This document shows, piece by piece, positions 4,927-15,647 of a DNA stretch of 64,000 bases. Every line of letters begins with the position of its first letter. Position 1 is the first letter of the stretch. The notes beneath the pieces were generated by a model. It was not told the DNA's origin and searched no databases. It worked only from the letters and a program-made list of their open reading frames with translations. The position numbers and the translations under genes were made by a program. The stretch is from Phycisphaerales bacterium (GTDB taxonomy: Bacteria; Planctomycetota; Phycisphaerae; Phycisphaerales; SM1A02), in contig JBGAKK010000020.1 in the NCBI GenBank assembly GCA_044224425.1, forward strand, positions 1 to 64,000. The letters run 5' to 3'.

Positions 4927-5541
4927 TCAACGCCGGCGACGACCAGCCATCGCGAACCCAAGCGTCACCAACGCCAGGGTCCCCGGCCCTGGGATGTCGA
5001 CGACGTAGATGCTGTCGAAGTAGTCCGCGGCAACCATCACGCGGTTGAAGTCGAAATCCGTCGTCCATCCGAAGAAGTGGATGCCGTTGAAGTTGTGCCC
5101 GAGTCCCGGAGACGAGTAGATCGAGCCTTGGAGCACCCCGTCGAGGTAGAACTCGGCATAGGCGATGGCAAAGCCGTTCGGCGCCCAGCGATCGAAGGCG
5201 AACGCCCGCTGGTGGGTGCCGAAGACGATCGACGGCTGATCCTCATAGAAGCCAGCGACTGGCTTCCCGATCCAGCCGTCCGAGGCTGCCACGTTCTGGC
5301 TGAGCCCCCAGTTGCAGCCGCCCGGCACGAACTTGCTGGCAAGCGTGATGCCGAGGCTGGCATAGAAGTCCTGCGACACCACGGAGGGACTCCCGGTCGG
5401 CGACGCGAAATCCGCCTTCCAGGACTGTCCCACGGCAGCGTCCCACAACGGCTTCTCGTCGATGTAGGCGACGATCGACGCCTGGGCCTCGGCGGCGACG
5501 GCGAGCGCAGGACCGAACACGCACAAGTTCCTCGCGGTCAT
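4927..5541 (-). CDS. secreted protein with PEP-CTERM-like sorting signal
   Basis: N-terminal signal peptide (MTARNLCVFGPALAVAAEAQA). C-terminus ..VVDIPGPGTLALVTLGFAMAGRRRR has a P-G-P motif, a hydrophobic helix and an Arg cluster. Strong RBS ggagggagg 7 nt upstream. Start ATG sits 1 nt after the stop of the upstream gene. Confidence 0.6.
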   Translation of the reverse strand: MTARNLCVFGPALAVAAEAQASIVAYIDEKPLWDAAVGQSWKADFASPTGSPSVVSQDFYASLGITLASKFVPGGCNWGLSQNVAASDGWIGKPVAGFYEDQPSIVFGTHQRAFAFDRWAPNGFAIAYAEFYLDGVLQGSIYSSPGLGHNFNGIHFFGWTTDFDFNRVMVAADYFDSIYVVDIPGPGTLALVTLGFAMAGRRRR

Positions 5542-5542
5542 G

Positions 5543-7297
5543 TCAGCCTCCCTCCTGCGCTTCCAAGAGCGCCAGCAACTCCTCCAGCACGGCCTGCCGT
5601 TCCGTCGGGCCGGCCGACTCGCACCACGCGCTCAGCGCCTCGATCGACGCGAAGCCCATGGCGGCGGCGGCCGCGGCCGCCGCGTTTCCCGCCTCCAGCG
5701 ACGAAGCCTCGCTCTGTTGCTCCATGGCTGACGCGCCGCAGCCGTCGAGCCCGGAGCATGGCCAGGCGATCGCGACCGGCGCGTTCGACCAGGCCCCGAG
5801 GAGGATGGCAAGGTCGGATGCCCCGACCGCCTGGTCCTCGTCGAGGTCCGCGGACTCCACGACGCAGACCGTCTGGGAGCCCCACGCCCCGAGCAGGATG
5901 CCGAGGTCTGCCGCGCTCACCCGGAAGTCGCCGTTGAGGTCGGCAATCGCCGTCACGACGCCTGCGTAGAAGTTCTGCGACGCGGAGCAGGTCGTCGGCG
6001 AGCCGGGCAGGAGGGGCGATGCCGCCACGATGACCGCGATGTGCCCGAGTTGGTTGGTGTCGTAGGCATGCACGGCAGCCAAAGCCTCGTTCACGTTCAC
6101 CTCGTCGACCTTGTGCACGCACCACGACCCGTCGGAGCATTGGTCCCATGCGAGCGCCTCAGGCGCCAAGGCGGTCAAGGTCCAACCGACGACGCGATGG
6201 TGATCGCACATCGGGAGGCTGCCCTCGGCCGTACCCTCGGTGACGGGCGACGGCAGAGGCAGTGGCGGCACCGGGTCGACATAGGCGACCGGCGACGTCG
6301 CGTCCTCCCAGAAGGCGGGGCGCCGCACGCAGTCCACCTCCGGGTCCGGCACGTTGTACGACCCCGGGACGAAGCCCGTCTCGTCGATCCCGCGGGCGTA
6401 GGTCGTCTGGGCCGCCACCTCGTCGGAGGCGAACTCCTCGCGACGGAGCCAGATCGGCGAGCCGACCCCGGTCGCGAGCGCCCCGACTTGGAAGTCACCC
6501 GTGCAGGAGGTCCCCGCGTTGTCGCCGGCACATTGGTCCACGCTCGTGGTGCTCGGCATTTGGTAGGACATCGCCAACGGCTGGTTGTCCGCCACGTCGG
6601 TGAAGTAGATCTCGTGGGACGAGAGCCAGGTGGATCCGGTCGCCGGGTCGGGCTGCACGGGCGTCAGGGAGTAGACGGGATTCTGCCCGAGACGGAACGA
6701 CGCCGGTCGCATGTCACCCGGGCAGGTCGGCAGCCCGCAGGCGCCGACGATGCGAGGGTCCTGCCCGCCGACCCGCTCGACCGCCAAGGCGATCGACCAC
6801 GAGACGGCCTCGCTGTCCGGGTCGTCGAGCGGCTTGTTCACCTGGACCGGGTTCATGGTGTTGCCGGGCATATTCCACGCGAAGGCGTAGAGCCCGTCGT
6901 CGAGGTACTCGCCGCCCCGCCCGCCCACCACCAACCCGTCGTCGGTCACGTCGTTGGCGTAGCCGGCCTCCTCGGTGCCACCGCCGAAGAGCGAAAGGAG
7001 GTCGTAGAAGCCGGGACTGAGGCCGTAGGACGCGGTGGTCAGCCAGATGAAAGGTCGCGGGCGCCAGACATCATCGGAGACCTCCTTGAGATACGTGCCC
7101 ACCATCAGTCCGTCGTCGTTGATCGCGAGCGTGCCGGCACCGGTGGCGCCACCCCGCTGGCCGATCACGTACCCGGCCCCGACGTACGCGGACCCCACCT
7201 CGGCCTCCAGGATGGGCACCACTCGCCAGGTCCGTTCCACGGGGCTCGGCGGGCACTGACCCGCCGTCAGGGTCGAGATGGTCAGCCCTGCCGCCAC
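5543..7297 (-). CDS. large extracellular protein with C-terminal dockerin-like repeats
   Basis: C-terminus has two ADLNGDFRVSAADLGILLGAWG / DLDEDQAVGASDLAILLGAWS repeats. GTG start at 7297; an in-frame TAG lies just upstream. Translationally coupled to the PEP-CTERM gene. Confidence 0.6.
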   Translation of the reverse strand: MAAGLTISTLTAGQCPPSPVERTWRVVPILEAEVGSAYVGAGYVIGQRGGATGAGTLAINDDGLMVGTYLKEVSDDVWRPRPFIWLTTASYGLSPGFYDLLSLFGGGTEEAGYANDVTDDGLVVGGRGGEYLDDGLYAFAWNMPGNTMNPVQVNKPLDDPDSEAVSWSIALAVERVGGQDPRIVGACGLPTCPGDMRPASFRLGQNPVYSLTPVQPDPATGSTWLSSHEIYFTDVADNQPLAMSYQMPSTTSVDQCAGDNAGTSCTGDFQVGALATGVGSPIWLRREEFASDEVAAQTTYARGIDETGFVPGSYNVPDPEVDCVRRPAFWEDATSPVAYVDPVPPLPLPSPVTEGTAEGSLPMCDHHRVVGWTLTALAPEALAWDQCSDGSWCVHKVDEVNVNEALAAVHAYDTNQLGHIAVIVAASPLLPGSPTTCSASQNFYAGVVTAIADLNGDFRVSAADLGILLGAWGSQTVCVVESADLDEDQAVGASDLAILLGAWSNAPVAIAWPCSGLDGCGASAMEQQSEASSLEAGNAAAAAAAAMGFASIEALSAWCESAGPTERQAVLEELLALLEAQEGG

Positions 7298-7380: not shown

Positions 7381-7860
7381 TCTGAGTCGCATGGCGAGCT
7401 CCTGCTCGCGTCAGCGATGGAGTGGCGGAAGACCCCGAAGCGGGTGGCCCCGCCCGCCAGCAACCGTTTGCGCGCGGGACGCACAGGTGCGTCCGCTCGA
7501 CTGCTGGGCTCTCCCTTGCTCGATGCTATACGTAAGGCGCGGAGAGACTCCGTCGGAATCTGTCGAATCGAGATTCCTTTCACCAGTGCTCGCACGCGCG
7601 CGGGCCTGCATCGGAATTCGGGCGACGCCCTCCTCGTCCCGATCAACCCCATCTCGGCCAACGCACGGTTCGGTGCATCACCGACGATGCGTCCGGGTCT
7701 CGGCAGCATGGCTTCCGAGCACCGCACCGCTCGCGAATAGGCAGCCTCCCGCCCGATCGCCCCCGTTTCGCCCCGGTCCCAGCAAGGACCGCGATTCGTA
7801 CGATGCCGATGACCCCTGATTGGCGGAGCGGTGTGGCGTCGCCGCGAAGAAGCGTAGGCA

Positions 7861-8458: not shown

Positions 8459-10453
8459 ATGACCCCTGTCGTGATCGTCGCCGGAGCGGCCCTCGCCGTG
8501 CCGCTCCTCGCCCTCTTCCTCCTGGTGCGCTACGTGCCGAACGAGCGCATCGCGGTGGTCGAGAAGCGATTCAGCGGCCGCGGCTCGATCAAGCACGGCC
8601 TCATCGCTCTCAACGGCGAGGCGGGCTTCGCCCCCACCGTCCTGCGCGGTGGCTTCCACTGGCTCAACCGCCTCCAGTACAAGCTGCACATCCTGCCCCT
8701 CGTGACCATCACCCAAGGCAAGATCGGCTATGTCTTCGCCCGCGACGGCGCCCCGCTCGGCCCGACCCAGACCTTGGCCTCGAACCGCACGGCGACCGCC
8801 TTCGAGGACGTGGCCGCTTTCCTCTCAAGCGGCGGCCAGCGCGGACCGCAGCGGCTGATCCTCCGCGAGGGCACCTATGCCATCAACCTCGCCCAGTTCG
8901 CGGTCATCACCGAGGAGCACGTCTACTTCCTCCCCCTGAGTAAGACCGAGACCGCCGTCTTCCAGGAGATGGCCGACCTGCTCGAGGACCGCGACGGCTT
9001 CACCCCCATCGTCATCAAGGGCAGCGAGGACCAGCTCGGGGTGGTCACCATCCACGACGGCCCGGCCCTGGCTGGCGAGCAGATCATCGCCCCCATCGTG
9101 GGCAGCGCGAGCGGCGAACCCGAGACCTACCACAACTGCTTCCAGGATCCCGAGAAGTTCCTCGCCGCCGGCGGTCGCCGCGGCCGCCAGGCCCAGGTCC
9201 TCGTCGAAGGCACCTATTACGTCAATCGCCTCTTCGCCACCATCGAGATGCTCCCCAAGACGGTGATCGACGTCGGCTCGGTGGGCGTGGTGGTGAGCTA
9301 CACCGGCGAGCTCGGCCTCGACCTCTCGGGCAGCGACTACAAGCACGGCGAGCTGGTGAAGCACGGCGAGCGCGGCGTGTGGAGCGAGCCGCTTCTCCCT
9401 GGCAAGTACGCCTTCAACACCTATGCCGGCAAGGTCATCCAGGTGCCGACCACGAACTTCATCCTCAAGTGGATCAGCGCCCAGACCGGCAGCCATCGCT
9501 ACGACGAGAACCTGGCCGAGGTCTCTCTCATCACCAAGGACGCCTTCGAGCCGTCGCTCCCGCTGAGCGTCGTCGTCCACATCGACTACCGCAAGGCGCC
9601 GCTCGTCATCCAACGCTTCGGCGACATCCGCCGCCTGGTCGAGCAGACGCTTGATCCCATGATCGCCGCCTACTTCAAGAACATCGCCCAGACCCGCACG
9701 CTCATCCAGCTCCTCCAGGACCGCTCGGCGATCCAGGAGCAGGCCGGCCAGGAGATGCGGGCCAAGTTCGCCCACTACAACCTCGAGCTGGAGGAGGTCC
9801 TGATCGGCACGCCGACCAGCGGCAAGGCCGACAACAAGATCGAGACCATCCTCAACCAGCTCCGCCAGCGGCAGATCGCCGAGGAGCAGATCGAGACCTA
9901 CGCCCGGCAGGAGAAGGCCGCGGTCAAGGAACGCGAGCTCCGCGAGGCCGAGGCTCGCTCGCGTCAGCAGCAGGCCATCACCGAGAGCGAACTCTCGATC
10001 GCCATCCAGTCGAACCAAGGCAAGGCCGAGTTCCAGCGCTCGCTGCAGGAGGCCGCCCGCGTGCGGGCCATGGCCGAGGCCGAGGGCTCGCGGATCCGCA
10101 CCATCGCCGAAGCCGAGGCCCAGCGGGCGGCCCAGGTCGGCTTGGGCCAGGCCATCGCCATCGAGGAGCAGGTCCGGGCCTACGGCGGGCCGCAGTTCCA
10201 GCTCACCCAGCAGGTGATGAACCGCTTCGCGGAGGCGATCCAGGCCGCCCACGTCGACGTGGTGCCCAAGATCGTGGTCGGCGGCGCGGGCGGCGGAGCC
10301 CCGAACGGCGGCAGCGTGATGGAGACGCTGCTCACCCTCCTCCTCTCCGAGAAGCTCGGCGTCCACGCCGGCAACGGCTCCGCCCCGCGCTCGGCAGAGG
10401 TCGAGGCCATGCGCGGCCAACTGCTCGCAGCGGCCAAGCCGGTCCAGAACTGA
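8459..10453 (+). CDS. flotillin-like SPFH/band-7 domain protein
   Basis: True start MTPVVIVAGAALAVPLLALF (ATG 8459, RBS ggagag). The upstream part of ORF 7820..10453 is the rpsA fragment plus non-coding sequence. N-terminal membrane anchor, SPFH domain, and a long E/A/Q/R-rich coiled-coil tail typical of flotillins (YqiK-like). Confidence 0.85.
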   Translation: MTPVVIVAGAALAVPLLALFLLVRYVPNERIAVVEKRFSGRGSIKHGLIALNGEAGFAPTVLRGGFHWLNRLQYKLHILPLVTITQGKIGYVFARDGAPLGPTQTLASNRTATAFEDVAAFLSSGGQRGPQRLILREGTYAINLAQFAVITEEHVYFLPLSKTETAVFQEMADLLEDRDGFTPIVIKGSEDQLGVVTIHDGPALAGEQIIAPIVGSASGEPETYHNCFQDPEKFLAAGGRRGRQAQVLVEGTYYVNRLFATIEMLPKTVIDVGSVGVVVSYTGELGLDLSGSDYKHGELVKHGERGVWSEPLLPGKYAFNTYAGKVIQVPTTNFILKWISAQTGSHRYDENLAEVSLITKDAFEPSLPLSVVVHIDYRKAPLVIQRFGDIRRLVEQTLDPMIAAYFKNIAQTRTLIQLLQDRSAIQEQAGQEMRAKFAHYNLELEEVLIGTPTSGKADNKIETILNQLRQRQIAEEQIETYARQEKAAVKERELREAEARSRQQQAITESELSIAIQSNQGKAEFQRSLQEAARVRAMAEAEGSRIRTIAEAEAQRAAQVGLGQAIAIEEQVRAYGGPQFQLTQQVMNRFAEAIQAAHVDVVPKIVVGGAGGGAPNGGSVMETLLTLLLSEKLGVHAGNGSAPRSAEVEAMRGQLLAAAKPVQN

Positions 10454-10534: not shown

Positions 10535-12589
10535 TCAGCCCGCCACGTCGCCGAAGTGCCCGAGCACCTCGAGGATGTCGAGGGCGTCGACCTCGCCGTC
10601 GTGGTTGAGGTCGGCCGGGCAGTAGGTCGGATCGCCGCAGGGACCCCAAGCGAGGTGGATGGCGGTGATGTCGTCGCGATCGACGCGCCCGTCGAGATTG
10701 GCGTCGCCGGGGATCGCGATGGTGGCCAACTGCCGGTAGATGGCGTCGGTGACCGCATCGCCGTTGAACCCAAACCACGTCTCCTTCACCATCCCGGTCG
10801 GCGTGACCAGGAAGCTCCGCGAGAAGGGCAGGCCCGACGCTGGCTGCTGGTAGGCGACATAGGACACGCTGCCCGAGAGGTCGAAGAGCATCGGCATCCG
10901 CAGGTAGAGGTTGTGCCAGTACTCGTCGAGGAGGCTGGCGTCCTCCTTTTGGCTGATGAGGACCATCGACACCTGCGGATGGTGCTCGAAGAGGGCCCCG
11001 ATCGAATTCTGCACGTCGCACACGACCGGCATGCAGGCCGGGCACCAGGTGCCGAAGATCTGGAAGTAGACCACCTTGCCGAGCTGCTCGGTGAGGGAGA
11101 ACGAGCTGTAGGTGAAGAGCTCCCGCTCGTGGTCGTACGTCCACATGGGCAGCGTGAACGGCACGGCGGGCTGGCCAGGGTCGATGTAGCCCGTGTTGCC
11201 GAAGAGTTCGGCCGGGAGGATTGACTCGTCGGGGTCGTTCGAGGTGACCTTGAGCAGCGTCTGGGCCGCCGTTCCAGGCGTGTAGGTGACCGCGAGATTC
11301 ACCGATGCCCCCGGGGCGATGGTCATGGCATTGTGCGGCGTCACCGTGAAGTTCGCGGCTCCCGTCGCGATCGATGTGACGTTGAGGGGCACGGCACCCG
11401 AGTTCGACAGCTTCACGTTGATGGTGCCGCCCGCGGCCTCGAAGCGGACCCGCTGGTTCGAGAGGTTCGCGTCCGGCTGCGTGGAGCTGGCCAGCGGGAC
11501 GATGCGGTAGACGTCCACCGAATCCCAATTGGCGGCGAGGAGATGGTCGCTGCCCCAAGCGGCGACGCCGTGCCAGAGGCGGAGGGAGACCGCGCCGCCG
11601 GCCAGCATGCGATGCAGACCTCGCTCGGTGGTGATCGGCTTCAGCATCGCGTCCGGAGCGAGCTCGAAGAGGTTGATTCCGGTGATGTCGGCCACGGCCA
11701 GATAGCCGTGCAGGTCGGCCAGGGCCCGGGCGATGCCGGGGGTTTGGAACTGGTGGCGCCGCCCCACGTCGCCGTTCTCGTAGGTGAGGACGCCGGCGCT
11801 TCCGGCGGCGAGGTAGACGTCGCCGTCGATGACCGCGACGTCCTCGGCAGTGCCGAGGGCCGTGCCATTCACCCGCTCTCCCGCCACCACCCGCATGGCG
11901 GCCGGGTTAGCCACGTCGACCACCTTGAGCCCGCCGGCGCCGTCGGCGACGTACGCAGTTCGACCGTCGACGGCGATGGCGAAGGCGTCGGTGAAGCCGG
12001 TGCCGAGCGAACCGATCAGGGCTGGCTCCTCGGGCGTCGAGACGTCATAGCAGCGGATGCCGTAGGCATGCGCCGCGACGTAGAGCCGGTGCCCAGCCAC
12101 CGCCATGTCCTCGAAGTAGACGCCCGGCTCTTCCACCGTGGTGAGCCACTCAATCGCCTTGGTGGCAGGATCGATGTGGACCACGCCGAAACCGCCGAGG
12201 CGGAGGTTGGCGAAAAGGTACTCGTCGCCGTAGGGGACGAGCGAGTAGACGTCGTGACCGCGCAGCTCGCTGACGAAGCTGTTCGTCCCCTGCCCCGGCG
12301 GCAAGGCGTCGAGGTTGATCACCCGGAGCGCGTCGTAGGAGCAGGTGACCGCGAAGTGGTCGAAGATGGGCATGACGCCGACCAGGTGATCGCGGCCGAT
12401 GAGCTGGTGGTTGTAGCGACCGACATGCTCGAACCGGGCGTCGCCAGCGGCGAGCGCACTCCCGGCTGCAGTCAGGGCCAACGCCCCGACGAGGAGCGGA
12501 CGAGTGGCGCCGCAGACCCGGCGCGGACGGGCGAACTCAGCCGAAGCACGGGCCGCGGGTTCGCAGCCGGTCTCTTGCATGCGGTGCAT
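10535..12589 (-). CDS. secreted multidomain protein: LVIVD-type beta-propeller + Ig-like + thioredoxin-like (WCPAC) + C-terminal dockerin-like repeats
   Basis: AGGAGG RBS 5 nt before ATG 12589. Signal peptide LLVGALALTAAGSALAAG. Repeated ..GAGGLKVVDVANPA.. LVIVD-like blades. FGTWCPAC redoxin motif. C-terminus GDANLDGRVDRDDITAIHLAWG / DLNHDGEVDALDILEVLGHFG. Confidence 0.7.
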   Translation of the reverse strand: MHRMQETGCEPAARASAEFARPRRVCGATRPLLVGALALTAAGSALAAGDARFEHVGRYNHQLIGRDHLVGVMPIFDHFAVTCSYDALRVINLDALPPGQGTNSFVSELRGHDVYSLVPYGDEYLFANLRLGGFGVVHIDPATKAIEWLTTVEEPGVYFEDMAVAGHRLYVAAHAYGIRCYDVSTPEEPALIGSLGTGFTDAFAIAVDGRTAYVADGAGGLKVVDVANPAAMRVVAGERVNGTALGTAEDVAVIDGDVYLAAGSAGVLTYENGDVGRRHQFQTPGIARALADLHGYLAVADITGINLFELAPDAMLKPITTERGLHRMLAGGAVSLRLWHGVAAWGSDHLLAANWDSVDVYRIVPLASSTQPDANLSNQRVRFEAAGGTINVKLSNSGAVPLNVTSIATGAANFTVTPHNAMTIAPGASVNLAVTYTPGTAAQTLLKVTSNDPDESILPAELFGNTGYIDPGQPAVPFTLPMWTYDHERELFTYSSFSLTEQLGKVVYFQIFGTWCPACMPVVCDVQNSIGALFEHHPQVSMVLISQKEDASLLDEYWHNLYLRMPMLFDLSGSVSYVAYQQPASGLPFSRSFLVTPTGMVKETWFGFNGDAVTDAIYRQLATIAIPGDANLDGRVDRDDITAIHLAWGPCGDPTYCPADLNHDGEVDALDILEVLGHFGDVAG

Positions 12590-12860
12590 CGCTGCCTCCT
12601 AGGAAGGAGAGCGGGGCCCGGGAACGCGGAGTTTCCGCGCCTACCCCGCGGGAGAACCCCCCTGCGATCGAGCGCGGACGCCGCGGCGTCGAGCAGCGGG
12701 ATGTCACCAGCGTAGTGGATTCCGGACCTTCGGGTACGAGATTGCAGCGAAGATGACGAGGATCGTGGGGAGTCCGCGGCGCGGTGCGTCGAGGCGAGGT
12801 TTCGGAACGCGGATCTGGATTCGGTTGATTTGGGGGCGGGCGGGTTCGGATGGGGTTCGA

Positions 12861-13270
12861 TGGGACAGGCATCGACGGCGTGGGACAGGCACCTGCTTGG
12901 GCGGGCCGTCGGCCGCGGCATGGGACAGGCATGGCGGGTTGGCGGCCAGCCCGCTTGGGGACAGCCCGCTGGGGGACAGGCACTCGGGGCGGGCTCGACG
13001 TGGGACGGCCCGACGTGGGACAGGCACTCCGCATCCCCTGGGACAGGCACTCGGAACGCGAGCCAGGCACGGGACAGGCACTAGGACACGCATGGGCCCC
13101 GGTCCACCCGCCTGCCGGAATTGGGACAGGCAGGGGGGCGTGGGACAGGCACGGGCTTGGGACAGGCACGCGGCCGCGGCATGGGACAGGCATGGCGAGC
13201 TGGCGGCCGCCCGCCTTGGGACAGGCACCATGGGACAGGCACCACGGGACAGGCACCTCAGGACGGCCAC
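12861..13270 (+). repeat. array of ~17 direct copies of 11-mer TGGGACAGGCA (plus degenerate variants) with irregular 0-30 nt spacers
   Basis: Exact copies begin at 12861, 12881, 12921, 13016, 13040, 13122, 13141, 13158, 13182, 13217, 13231. Near-copies at 12956, 12972, 13001, 13070, 13083, 13245, 13260. All on the same strand, with non-periodic spacing. Confidence 0.9.
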
Positions 13271-13438
13271 CCCACCAACGACAACGCCCACGATCTCGTG
13301 GGCGTCTTCCGACTGATCCAGTTCTTCCCGCGTCGCCTCGTTGAGGCAACCGCGGCGACCTCTTGCCGAGGTCCCCGTCAACGCACGATCGCTCCTGCGT
13401 CACCCGAGCGTGGCTTCGGGCGTCGTGGAGCGAGGTAT

Positions 13439-13522
13439 TCAGCAGAGGGCGGCGTAGGCGAGCGCGGTGAGGATGAAGAGCTTCACCTTCCGGTCGTTGA
13501 TACGAAGTAGCGTGGAGAGCAT
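13439..13522 (-). CDS. possible 27-aa hydrophobic micro-protein (MLSTLLRINDRKVKLFILTALAYAALC)
   Basis: ATG with GGAG 6 nt upstream. Single predicted TM helix. Not in the ORF track because it is under 60 aa. Speculative. Confidence 0.25.
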   Translation of the reverse strand: MLSTLLRINDRKVKLFILTALAYAALC

Positions 13523-13700
13523 GTCTGGCTCCGAGCCTCTCTTCAGTTGTAGGAGAATCCCGCTGCCGGGCTGGCCTCGGTAGGATCAAAGCCTGTGCCA
13601 CGCCGGGGCGTCCGGGCCGCGAACGGCCTGGGTGCGAATCCTCGCGGGGTCCGCCCCTCTCCTTCGGTTCTGGATGCGCCACCCGATGCCCCGACGCAAC

Positions 13701-15647
13701 ATGGGTCGATGCCTCCTCGCCACGTGCCTGGCATTCTCGGCCCTCGCCTGTGGCGTGGCGGCAGCGGACACCGAGCCGCCGCATGGCGAGCCGCCGGCCG
13801 CGGAGAAGGCTCCGGCCGCCCAGCCACCGCCTCCCGCCGAGCACGGACCAAGCGAGCCAGACGTCGCGGCCTGCGTCGACGGCTACCTCGCCGCCCGGCA
13901 GTGGGTCGACACCCTCGCCCCGCCTGACCCGGAGGCCCCGGAATCACATCTCACGCTCCCCGGGGTACGCGGGGTCAGCGTGATCCTCCGCCACCAAGGC
14001 CGCATGGTCGGGATCGGCGACGACTGGCCACCTCTTGCCGGCGACGAGCGCATGCTCCGCCGGGCCGTGGGCCGAGCCATCGGCCGGGCCCTCGGTGACC
14101 GCGTCATCAGCGCCCTCCCTCCCGCCGAACGCGATGCGGCTGGCAAGCAGCTCACCGTCGAACTCGAGTTTGCCGGACGGCCCGAGCCGCTGCTTGGCCG
14201 GACCATCGCCGAGTGCGCGACCCGCGTCGAGCCGGGCCTCGATGGCTTGGCGATCCGCCGCGCCGGCGGCGGCAAGCCAGTCTGGGCCGTGGCCTTCCCG
14301 AGCCGGCTGCAGGCGACCAACCTGTCGGGTGGCCCGGAGCGAACGATCGTCTCCCTCCTCCTTGACGTCGGCCTCCCCGCGAAGGACCTGCCGGAACTCG
14401 CCCGCATCGAGCCGGTCGGCATCTTCAAGTTCTCCTCGCTTCGCCTCGCCCAGACCGGGCCGGACCGCCCGCCCATCGTGCGCGGCCGAGGCGCTGCCCG
14501 CGTCGCCGATGGCGACGTCACATCCGCGGCGATCGTGGCCCATGCTCGCCGGGTGCTCGATCGACTGCGGGAGTCGATGCCGCAGTCACGCAACGCAGAC
14601 GCCCCCTCCGCAGGCATCGGATTGGTGGGCGACTACCACCCGGTGAGCGACGAATGCAAGCCCCTCGTCGCCCCGCCGCACGACCAAGCGTTGGTGGCGT
14701 GGGCCGCGGCGGCCGTGGCGGCATCGGACAAGTTCCCGGCTGCCGATCGAGCCATGGCCAAACAATTCGCAGTGGCCATCCTCGAAGACCTGGTCATCCT
14801 CAATCCGAACGAGGAATCTCCCACCACGGCGACCCCGTCCCTGGCCTTTGCCCTGTGCGCGGTGACCACGTTGGGCGGCCCCAACGACCTGAGCGAAGAT
14901 GCCGCGGACCTGGCCCGCATCGCTCGCGAGAAGCTCGCCGTCGGCCTGCAGTCGGGCTCGCCCAACGATCGCTCGCTGGCCTGTCTCGCCGCCGCCATGA
15001 CCTTGGGCACCGAGCAGCGGCTCGCCCCGGCCAGCGACGTGCGCCGAGCCCTCGACATCGTGTGGGACGGGACGCCCAAGGAGCAGTTGGTCGCCTTCTT
15101 CCCCTGGCTCATCCTCGCTGAGAGCGCCTACGCCCGGGCCACCGGCCAGGCCGCTGCCCGCGGCGGCGAAGCGAGGGCCCTGACCCAAGCCCTCTTCCTG
15201 GCCCAGGCCGGATTCGGGGACCTCACCTCGCAGCAGGATCTCCGCGGCGGTTTCCGCCTGACGAACGGCCGCCGAGGCGGCGTCACCGCCCAGTCGCTGC
15301 GACCCGGCCTCGGGCTCGCGGCAATGGTCGCCTATCCCGGCTTCCTCACCGAGGACGCCTTGCCACTCCATCGCGAGCGACTCCTCGCCCTCGTCCGCTT
15401 CGCCTTCGAACTCACCGCGGACGAGGAATTGGCGTCCTTCTACCGGAATCCCGCTCGCGTCCTCGGCGGGATGCGCGAAGCCCTGTGGGACTCCGACCAG
15501 CCTGTCGCGGCCAACGCAGTGGGCGTCCTGGTCGACGTACTTGCCCTTGAGGCTGGCGTCGGTGCCAACGGCCACGGCCACGCCCCGGACGAACCCGGGC
15601 CTGCGAACGCTCCGGCCCCCGCTTCCCCAGCCGCACCCCCCGCCTGA
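13701..15647 (+). CDS. hypothetical secreted protein
   Basis: ORF 13632..15647. Preferred start MGRCLLATCLAFSALACGVAAAD (signal peptide). Pro/Ala-rich linker, then a ~580-aa domain with no recognisable motif. Confidence 0.55.
   Translation: MGRCLLATCLAFSALACGVAAADTEPPHGEPPAAEKAPAAQPPPPAEHGPSEPDVAACVDGYLAARQWVDTLAPPDPEAPESHLTLPGVRGVSVILRHQGRMVGIGDDWPPLAGDERMLRRAVGRAIGRALGDRVISALPPAERDAAGKQLTVELEFAGRPEPLLGRTIAECATRVEPGLDGLAIRRAGGGKPVWAVAFPSRLQATNLSGGPERTIVSLLLDVGLPAKDLPELARIEPVGIFKFSSLRLAQTGPDRPPIVRGRGAARVADGDVTSAAIVAHARRVLDRLRESMPQSRNADAPSAGIGLVGDYHPVSDECKPLVAPPHDQALVAWAAAAVAASDKFPAADRAMAKQFAVAILEDLVILNPNEESPTTATPSLAFALCAVTTLGGPNDLSEDAADLARIAREKLAVGLQSGSPNDRSLACLAAAMTLGTEQRLAPASDVRRALDIVWDGTPKEQLVAFFPWLILAESAYARATGQAAARGGEARALTQALFLAQAGFGDLTSQQDLRGGFRLTNGRRGGVTAQSLRPGLGLAAMVAYPGFLTEDALPLHRERLLALVRFAFELTADEELASFYRNPARVLGGMREALWDSDQPVAANAVGVLVDVLALEAGVGANGHGHAPDEPGPANAPAPASPAAPPA

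Follow-up and report, generated by a model that had tools for sequence, protein, structure and literature searches.

Among the closest described relatives of the repeats analysed here are the REP, BIME and REPIN sequences that belong to RAYT proteins, such as YafM/TnpA-REP in E. coli and the REPINs of Pseudomonas. These are imperfect palindromes of 20-40 nt tagged with GTAG (or CGTC), and in BIMEs their orientation alternates. A further close system is RAYT group 1 (Bertels et al., 2017). In addition, Di Nocera et al. (2013) described RAYT-like genes flanked by terminal inverted repeats (TIRs), named TIRYT/TIRtrons, whose TIRs share the sequence GGGGWSAS and can form moderately abundant families of singles, dimers and clusters (PMC3733652). 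TIRYT corresponds to TnpA-REP subclass 2.1 according to Quentin et al. (2018), who gave the consensus as GGGG[AT][CG]A[CG], described a C-terminal HTH domain that is sometimes DnaA_C-like, and found no REP-like sequences near genes of subclass 2.1 or 2.3 (PMC6006769). Both works are purely comparative, and our literature search found the term TIRYT used in these two papers only.

We analysed an array of short direct repeats within a 64-kb stretch of DNA (hereafter the window). The window has a GC content of ~69% and consists of ordinary chromosome, with rpsA, dnaE, a methionine gamma-lyase-like gene, a histidine kinase gene and a gene for a Ser/Thr kinase-WD40 protein. The locus is present in three independent public assemblies, and the aligned one (L121) matches the window at 99.7%. 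The array comprises the following features:

12861..13270, plus strand: whole array, 14 exact and 3-5 degenerate copies of GGGACAGGCA(C/T) with irregular spacers, from motif counts
12862..12871, plus strand: core copy 1, exact
12882..12891, plus strand: core copy 2, exact
12899..12959, plus strand: 61-nt block, first copy, from the repeat search (82% identity to the second)
12922..12931, plus strand: core copy 3, exact
12958..12967, plus strand: degenerate copy GGGACAGCCC, 2 mismatches
12973..12982, plus strand: core copy 4, exact, the sole copy with a preceding G, giving GGGGACAG
13002..13011, plus strand: degenerate copy GGGACGGCCC, 3 mismatches
13017..13026, plus strand: core copy 5, exact
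13040..13049, plus strand: core copy 6, exact
13060..13069, plus strand: doubtful degenerate copy GAGCCAGGCA, 2 mismatches
13071..13080, plus strand: core copy 7, exact
13083..13092, plus strand: degenerate copy AGGACACGCA, 2 mismatches
13123..13132, plus strand: core copy 8, exact
13142..13151, plus strand: core copy 9, exact
13159..13168, plus strand: core copy 10, exact
13160..13220, plus strand: 61-nt block, second copy, from the repeat search
13183..13192, plus strand: core copy 11, exact
13217..13257, plus strand: 14-nt tandem repeat TGGGACAGGCACCA, 2.9 copies, holding the last three cores, from the tandem-repeat search
13218..13227, plus strand: core copy 12, exact
13232..13241, plus strand: core copy 13, exact
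13246..13255, plus strand: core copy 14, exact
13260..13269, plus strand: degenerate terminal copy AGGACGGCCA, 3 mismatches

The 11-mer TGGGACAGGCA occurs 11 times between 12861 and 13241, on the plus strand only, while dinucleotide shuffles expect 0.02 copies and none of 100 shuffles reached 11. It has no copy in the rest of the 64-kb window and is thus not, as had been considered, equally dense elsewhere within it. The 10-nt core GGGACAGGCA was found in 14 exact copies, again all on the plus strand, 11 of which lie within TGGGACAGGCA. Degenerate cores add another 3-5 copies, three of them with two mismatches (12958, 13060 and 13083) and two weaker ones with three (13002 and 13260); beyond the array, core matches with up to two mismatches stayed at background level throughout the window. 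The original prediction, which had counted at least 11 exact and 6-7 near copies on one strand with no periodicity, agrees with these figures: start-to-start distances of the cores range from 11 to 44 nt (11, 14, 17, 19, 20 and 23 nt, among others) and have no period. The repeat itself measures 10-12 nt, the gaps that separate the cores measure ~1-34 nt, and the spacers are partly duplicated. Taken together with the base in front of it, the core reads TGGGACAG in eleven copies, CGGGACAG in two and GGGGACAG in one (12972). All three reading frames are used by the copies, which bears out the claim that the array is non-coding and that the pseudo-ORFs it creates are artefacts.

Parts of the array are themselves repeated. 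The 61-nt block at 12899-12959 recurs at 13160-13220, 261 nt away and with 82% identity (repeat family D4). At the 3' end of the array, the 14-nt tandem has the look of local slippage or duplication. The duplicated block and the tandem together imply that the array grew partly through local or segmental duplication of the motif plus its spacer.

Measured against the classical REP and BIME systems, the array shares some features and lacks others. Short, high-copy extragenic repeats are common to both, as is, on our reading, a domesticated Y1 HUH transposase, encoded by one gene copy, that maintains them in trans; the clusters are mostly intergenic and disrupt short-read assemblies in both cases. 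However, the repeat in the window lacks both dyad symmetry and a GTAG tag, and every copy points in the same direction. No inverted repeats were found in 12500-13750, in keeping with the original description of the motif as non-palindromic and distinct from REP and MITE elements. Accordingly, no REP-type stem-loop of 20-40 nt was found in this region, and folding was no better than that of shuffled sequences. Neither a GTAG nor a CGTC tag stands at the core end, where the flanking bases are variable save for position +11 (62% C), and alternating unit orientation was not seen, all array copies being on the plus strand. CRISPR had been dismissed at the outset, and rightly so: its repeats are 24-48 nt long and regular with unique spacers of like length, whereas here 10-12-nt repeats are separated by irregular gaps of ~1-34 nt with partly duplicated spacers. 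Spacing or sequence was also unfit for several other candidates, namely sigma-54, ECF or sigma-32 promoters, MraZ or Pho-box repeats, CsrA GGA sites, pairing to 16S rRNA, complementarity to the tRNA 3' end or the tRNA-Asp anticodon arm, and Tn7- or Mu-type transposon ends.

The array lies in a 1.1-kb intergenic region between two divergent ORFs, as originally placed, with a small ORF beside it:

10535-12589, minus strand: gene for an LVIVD/thioredoxin-like protein
13434-13523, minus strand: conserved small ORF on the array side of the plus-strand gene, overlooked in the original prediction
13701-15647, plus strand: gene for an uncharacterised 648-aa protein with no family assignment

The closest homologues of the 13701-15647 product share 47-55% identity with it, and one of them comes from a metagenome-assembled genome (MAG) named Phycisphaerales. 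An identity of ~50% to proteins from Phycisphaerales MAGs makes Phycisphaerae the probable taxon of the window. A comparison with orthologous intergenic regions, proposed together with the description of the array, covered four loci from related Phycisphaerales (~50% amino acid identity). Downstream synteny is conserved in all four, as are the small ORF on the minus strand and, upstream of the 13701-15647 orthologue, the element GTAGGATCAAAG..GTGCCAC. The array is missing from every one of them: the motif had zero copies in 4/4 relatives compared, and a TetR-RND operon stands where the array would be. The array is therefore lineage-specific.

The same motif is nevertheless found in other genomes. 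A search for pairs of cores no more than 30 nt apart, with each species represented by a single genome, yielded at least 120 loci. About one third of these look coding, with Gly-Gln-Ala or QAQG repeats and spacings in multiples of three. The remaining listed loci are non-coding same-strand clusters of GGGACAGGCA(C/T), in which the spacers are wholly genome-specific and the periods differ between genomes (13, 17, 18, 20, 29 or 42 nt, or irregular). Such clusters are present in Phycisphaerae (11 copies in L008 and 9 in L049), in Pirellulales, Planctomycetaceae, Verrucomicrobiota, Kiritimatiellae, Lentisphaerae, Vicinamibacterales, Latescibacterota and Gemmatimonadota, and in the gammaproteobacterial isolates Marinicella, Amphritea, Vibrio sinensis and Halioxenophilus. 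In several MAGs, the motif is spread over 3-4 separate contigs and frequently borders a contig end or a 100-N gap. The flanks of the core are variable across these loci, with a bias at position +11 only (62% C), and at many of them the copies read GGGGACAGGCAC. Cluster orientation relative to neighbouring genes is mixed, with clusters located 5' of genes, 3' of genes or antisense; L075, L109 and L011 are antisense to both neighbours, and L084 and L098 hold convergent cluster pairs. This mixture argues for an element that acts at the level of DNA over a transcript. A scan of viral contigs gave 25 matches, mostly single pairs ~45 nt apart that may be coding collagen-like repeats, and a blastn comparison of the array with plasmid and phage collections returned no match. 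In the literature, a search for the raw motif returned eukaryotic primers only.

Y1 transposases were the sole neighbour family that recurred at more than seven motif loci among the matches listed. Using hmmsearch, we detected a Y1 homologue in 12 of the 120 listed motif loci (833 kb), versus none in 337 kb of control loci plus the window; neither a Y1 transposase gene nor a remnant of one was found within the 64-kb window. The Y1 proteins at motif loci match Pfam Y1_Tnp and come in two architectures, of ~155-295 aa and ~320-365 aa. Their best NCBIfam model is NF047646 (REP-associated tyrosine transposase), the cutoff of which was reached by the protein of L020. This short protein, encoded by a 226-aa ORF, contains the HUH and Y---NP motifs besides Pfam Y1_Tnp, and its best PDB match is 4ER8 (E. 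coli TnpA-REP). The motif brackets the L020 ORF, with one direct copy 27 nt before the ATG and two inverted copies after the stop. For the long TIRYT proteins, a profile search against PDB sequences gave no meaningful match, 4ER8 being reached by the short L020 protein alone, and Pfam detected no C-terminal HTH except for a weak HTH_23/HTH_7 match in L098.

The arrangement around L020 is not an isolated case. Among ten Y1 genes whose flanks were examined, eight have direct copies 27-270 nt upstream and inverted copies downstream, while the orientation of the copies in L104 and L085 breaks this rule. Direct copies upstream and inverted copies downstream also surround the Y1 genes of L156, L158 and L237, and the isolate Crateriforma conspicua carries two direct copies upstream and two inverted copies downstream of its gene. 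In L156, six direct copies spaced 17-40 nt apart stand immediately upstream of the TIRYT gene and resemble the array in the window. At E <= 1e-10, the Y1 protein family spans 3,576 database clusters, whose annotations read 'RayT' or 'transposase', and many of its genes are on contigs of 1.2-2 kb, as expected with flanking repeats. The co-occurrence could in principle reflect a transposase gene that targets pre-existing motif clusters instead of making them.

We also followed the association in the opposite direction, from protein to motif, with 80 metagenome loci that were gathered by similarity using alignment A1. The exact 'GG' core was present in only 2-3 of these 80 protein-selected loci. 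Many are flanked by inverted 10-15-mers of like shape, such as GGGACACCCAY, GGGACATCCAC, GGGCCATCCAT, GTGCCAYCCAC and GTGCCATGCAC. Counts of the generalized 11-nt motif depend on position and orientation:

G[GT]G[AC]CANNCA[CT] (11 nt), upstream of the gene: 33 direct and 7 inverted, 80 loci
G[GT]G[AC]CANNCA[CT], downstream of the gene: 2 direct and 16 inverted, 80 loci
G[GT]G[AC]CANNCA[CT], inside gene bodies (87 kb): 3 direct and 3 inverted

With the 10-nt form [GT]G[AC]CANNCA[CT], at least one correctly oriented flank site was found in 62 of 83 near-full-length long-type genes, for which the chance estimate is ~11%; the exact 'GG' variant accounts for 4 of these 62 genes. Protein pairs with more than 60% identity have the variant in common in 76% of cases, compared to 15-21% of pairs below 50%. 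That is, the motif variant tracks protein relatedness. A general by-product of this comparison is a putative 11-mer site with a variable central dinucleotide that follows TIRYT phylogeny.

On this basis, we consider it likely that the array consists of short, non-palindromic repeats clustered head to tail, from a family that flanks the genes of IS200-like Y1 HUH transposases of the RAYT/TIRYT type; we call the cluster orphan because the 64-kb window holds no transposase gene. The motif, left unrecognised in the original prediction, appears to fit the GGGGWSAS of TIRYT-flanking repeats. The core reads GGGACAG, and GGGGACAG fits both GGGGWSAS and GGGG[AT][CG]A[CG], the latter being the consensus of TnpA-REP subclass 2.1; subclass 2.3 is a further possible match for the system. 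Most copies in the window begin with TGGG rather than GGGG and so agree at 7/8 positions. The likeness to TIRtrons extends to the inverted repeats that flank a RAYT-like Y1 gene (at related loci, not in the window), to the singles, dimers and clusters that occur away from the gene, and to the lack of palindromic hairpins. There are also differences. No transposase gene lies within 64 kb of the window array, the conserved unit is longer (11 nt; [GT]G[AC]CANNCA[CT]) and its central dinucleotide varies along with the protein, and the 14-17 same-strand copies exceed any array in the text of PMC3733652 and PMC6006769. The exact 10- or 11-mer does not appear in the text or the accessible supplements of these two papers.

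We propose the following mechanism. In other genomes, the 11-mer or a close [GT]G[AC]CANNCA[CT] variant accompanies the transposase gene as one or several direct copies upstream and inverted copies downstream, and is also found away from it as singles, inverted pairs and same-strand clusters. It may serve as the recognition and/or cleavage site of a Y1 protein acting in trans from a gene elsewhere in the genome, with GGGACAGGCAC as the candidate word for binding or cleavage by the cognate TIRYT. We infer that this cognate gene lies elsewhere in the source genome. New copies may have been laid beside existing ones in the same orientation, as in single-strand transposition of the IS200/IS605 type, and the cluster would then have grown by segmental duplication and slippage, to which the 61-nt block and the 14-nt tandem point. 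A dense array of binding sites for one DNA-binding protein, among the options first offered for this locus, comes close to this explanation, in which binding by the transposase is predicted. The most plausible view of the array is that of a REP/BIME-like cluster made up of non-palindromic units. It is most likely passenger DNA, either selfish or neutral, rather than a device for replication or for regulating the two flanking genes.

A bolder version of this explanation grants the arrays a function, which we regard as unlikely though worth stating. Here, the 11-mer with its [GT]G[AC]CANNCA[CT] pattern would be the substrate of TnpA-REP 2.1/2.3 (TIRYT) proteins and the central dinucleotide a co-evolving specificity code, while large orphan arrays would function as high-avidity landing pads or sinks for a domesticated HUH nuclease with a DnaA-like HTH. 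Under the same substrate reading, arrays might act as insulators or recombination sites, an idea that arises because the array sits exactly at the position of the TetR-RND operon in the relatives.

It is rather improbable that the copies are operator sites of a host transcription factor which co-regulates both divergent genes, with the same orientation of the sites allowing cooperative binding. Such a role would fit an array that occupies the 1.1-kb divergent intergenic region, and dense direct repeats of similar appearance form the PHO-box or tor-box arrays of Streptomyces. However, the downstream gene, the small ORF and the upstream element are all retained in the four relatives, which nonetheless lack the motif. 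The same 10-mer is located in unrelated gene contexts across many phyla (5', 3' and antisense), the only recurrent neighbour among the matches listed is the Y1 transposase, and no sigma-70-like promoter was found.

We see little probability in a CsrB-like sponge RNA that would titrate an RNA-binding protein or a small RNA via ~17 repeats of UGGGACAGGCA. The layout of ~17 short same-strand repeats in ~400 nt does recall CsrB and RsmZ, a hairpin at 13284-13306 follows the array, and single motifs precede intrinsic terminators in Marinicella (L019). Yet Rfam gave no match in the array at gathering or permissive thresholds (E <= 10), a promoter and terminator scan called none, and folding equals that of shuffles (z = 0.00 for the plus and -1.25 for the minus strand). 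Clusters elsewhere are often antisense to both neighbours or convergent, as expected of DNA-level ends. Unlike CsrB and RsmZ, the array has no GGA-in-hairpin-loop units, promoter, terminator, folding signal or consistent orientation relative to genes.

Still less probable is that the array is a local pile-up of some polar word used throughout the genome, be it for DNA uptake or in the manner of Chi or KOPS. A stretch from a Spiribacter MAG (L104) could be read this way, since a single strand holds 11 copies within 8 kb, located in almost all intergenic and some coding regions, but this stretch itself holds a Y1 transposase gene. In addition, there are zero copies outside the array in the 64 kb of the window, and the identical word occurs in distant phyla, whereas known uptake and Chi words are lineage-specific.

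Less probable again is an origin of replication or a partition site built from iterons or a DnaA-box-like cluster, one of the two likenesses that the original prediction had put first. Direct repeats of ~11 bp do recall iterons or parC-type centromeres, to which the array would be similar in offering several direct copies of a site for one protein, and the C-terminal domain of some TIRYT proteins is similar to the DnaA DNA-binding domain (PMC6006769). But the repeat spacing has no period, the scanned neighbours include no rep, dnaA, dnaN or par gene, plasmids and phages gave no matches, and an AT-rich unwinding element is absent from the region, which has a GC content of ~70%. The proposed check of GC skew for proximity to an origin revealed only local, gene-oriented changes: over the length of the window the sign of the skew flips repeatedly, among other places to either side of the array at about 10 kb and 14 kb, following the orientation of the flanking genes, and has no single origin-like turning point. 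The array further differs from plasmid iterons and parC in being irregular and chromosomal without an adjacent rep or par gene, and its motif is found in chromosomes of many phyla, beside Y1 transposase genes, rather than being specific to one replicon. With no initiator gene, AT-rich element, phasing or origin-like skew, the earlier reading did not hold up, and the array is most likely not a replication origin. A repeat-containing protein-coding gene has a practically negligible probability: Logan gene calls do place a 280-aa ORF over the array and GGA-CAG-GCA (Gly-Gln-Ala) is coding in collagen-like or QAQG repeats elsewhere (L043, Clostridia), but this ORF has no Pfam match, spurious long ORFs are expected at 70% GC, and a missed longer coding frame is refuted because the copies fall in all three frames.

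A cluster of TIRYT-associated repeats would account for the assembly breaks and the false gene calls of the region and removes the apparent origin or iteron signal. For specialists in bacterial repeats, this is a useful extension and no surprise. RAYT/TIRYT proteins are among the most widespread domesticated transposases, yet their DNA targets have been established only for the subclasses with palindromic REPs. For the long TIRYT-type proteins, our data supply a precise candidate site, an 11-mer whose central dinucleotide varies with protein phylogeny, and this candidate site forms orphan arrays in Planctomycetota and in many other phyla.

Upstream of the gene for the 648-aa protein, four related Phycisphaerales loci without the motif (L124, 368-6000; L126, L128 and L130) carry a TetR and RND efflux operon of about 5 kb, with the LVIVD gene on the far side of this operon in L124. 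In the window, this position (12590-13433) contains the array instead. Thus, the break in synteny and the repeat cluster fall at the same place. Between the array and the 648-aa gene, three further features were recorded:

13284-13306, GC-rich hairpin with a perfect 9-bp stem, CGCCCACGA-TCT-CGTGGGCG, directly 3' of the array
13434-13523, minus strand, small ORF with the product MLSTLLRINDRKVKLFILTALAYAALC* and GGAG ahead of its start
13579-13601, element GTAGGATCAAAGCCTGTGCCAC, about 100 nt ahead of the gene for the 648-aa protein

The hairpin lies about 128 nt past the stop of the small ORF and may represent a bidirectional terminator; it was not called by the terminator scan because a T-run is absent. 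The small ORF has likely counterparts among the relatives. At the matching position in L130 the translation ends in ...HRLLILTALAFAGLC*, and similar-looking DNA stands at the equivalent place in L124, L126 and L128, a likeness at the nucleotide level. The ORF, which runs divergently from the gene for the 648-aa protein, may encode a small, hydrophobic and conserved peptide. The element at 13579-13601 is kept in all four related genomes (4/4) as GTAGGATCAAAG/ACGATCAAAC..GTGCCAC and may function as a promoter or operator. Within it, 13590-13600 reads as an inverted motif with two mismatches. Since relatives that lack the array keep the element, this likeness seems coincidental.

Other genomes present the motif in diverse arrangements. 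In a Spiribacter MAG (L104, 1-8000), 11 copies of (A/T)TTGGGACAGGCAC occupy a single strand within 8 kb, in nearly all intergenic regions plus some coding sequence, a density similar to that of uptake sequences; the same locus contains a gene for a RAYT-like transposase of the TIRYT type (5488-6500). A Verrucomicrobiae MAG (L103) contains three elements of about 85 bp within 8 kb (2500-2585, 4999-5085 and 7478-7563). These have inverted GGGACAGGCACNGAGC ends and a common internal sequence, and their appearance is that of MITE/REPIN-type derivatives of this repeat. In the isolate Marinicella sediminis (L019; 869, 1808 and 3060), a module of AAATACAGGGACAGGCAC, 12 nt, an intrinsic terminator hairpin and a T-run is repeated behind successive genes, and the motif there travels together with the terminator. 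On the minus strand of a Vicinamibacterales MAG (L042), CTTGAGT-N7-ACTCAAG, which matches HAIR, the HspR-associated inverted repeat known from heat-shock operons, stands directly 3' of a 17-nt tandem array and beside one inverted motif copy.

Not every occurrence belongs to this family. The same 10-mer was found inside coding low-complexity repeats, either as (GGGACAGGCACA)n, translated as GQAQ, or in collagen-like Gly-Gln-Ala stretches. Such loci occur in one 'Deltaproteobacteria' MAG (L043, L016, L033) and in Clostridia (such as L037, L050 and L052). These are look-alikes unrelated to the transposase-linked motif, and they inflate motif scans. Repeats of the transposase-linked motif evidently break short-read assemblies: 100-N scaffold gaps and contig ends directly adjoin motif clusters (L080, 1756-1851; L105, 4283-4380; L100), many motif loci lie at contig ends, and many TIRYT genes stand alone on contigs of 1.2-2 kb.

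Three adjacent Y1_Tnp genes were detected in the isolate Rubripirellula obstinata (L236, 8027-11074). One of them, encoding 93 aa (9639-9920), is truncated directly past the HUH region and exactly at a copy of GGGACAGGCA; the long TIRYT gene follows 93 nt downstream of this copy. Such an arrangement suggests that one unit was inserted into another. Across the loci L156-L235, L085-L112 and L236-L237, the 11-mer flanking TIRYT genes differs in its central dinucleotide and at positions 2 and 4 (GACACCCA 28, GCCACCCA 7, GCCATCCA 6, GACATCCA 5 and GACAGGCA 4, plus others), and the variant tracks the relatedness of the TIRYT proteins (76% shared above 60% identity). One canonical REP, from Paludibacter (subclass 2.4), GTAGGGACAGGTCGTGACCTGTCC, has GGGACAGG as its 5' stem arm (PMC6006769, supplementary table). 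The TIRYT-type 11-mer might be a 'half REP' minus its former palindromic partner.
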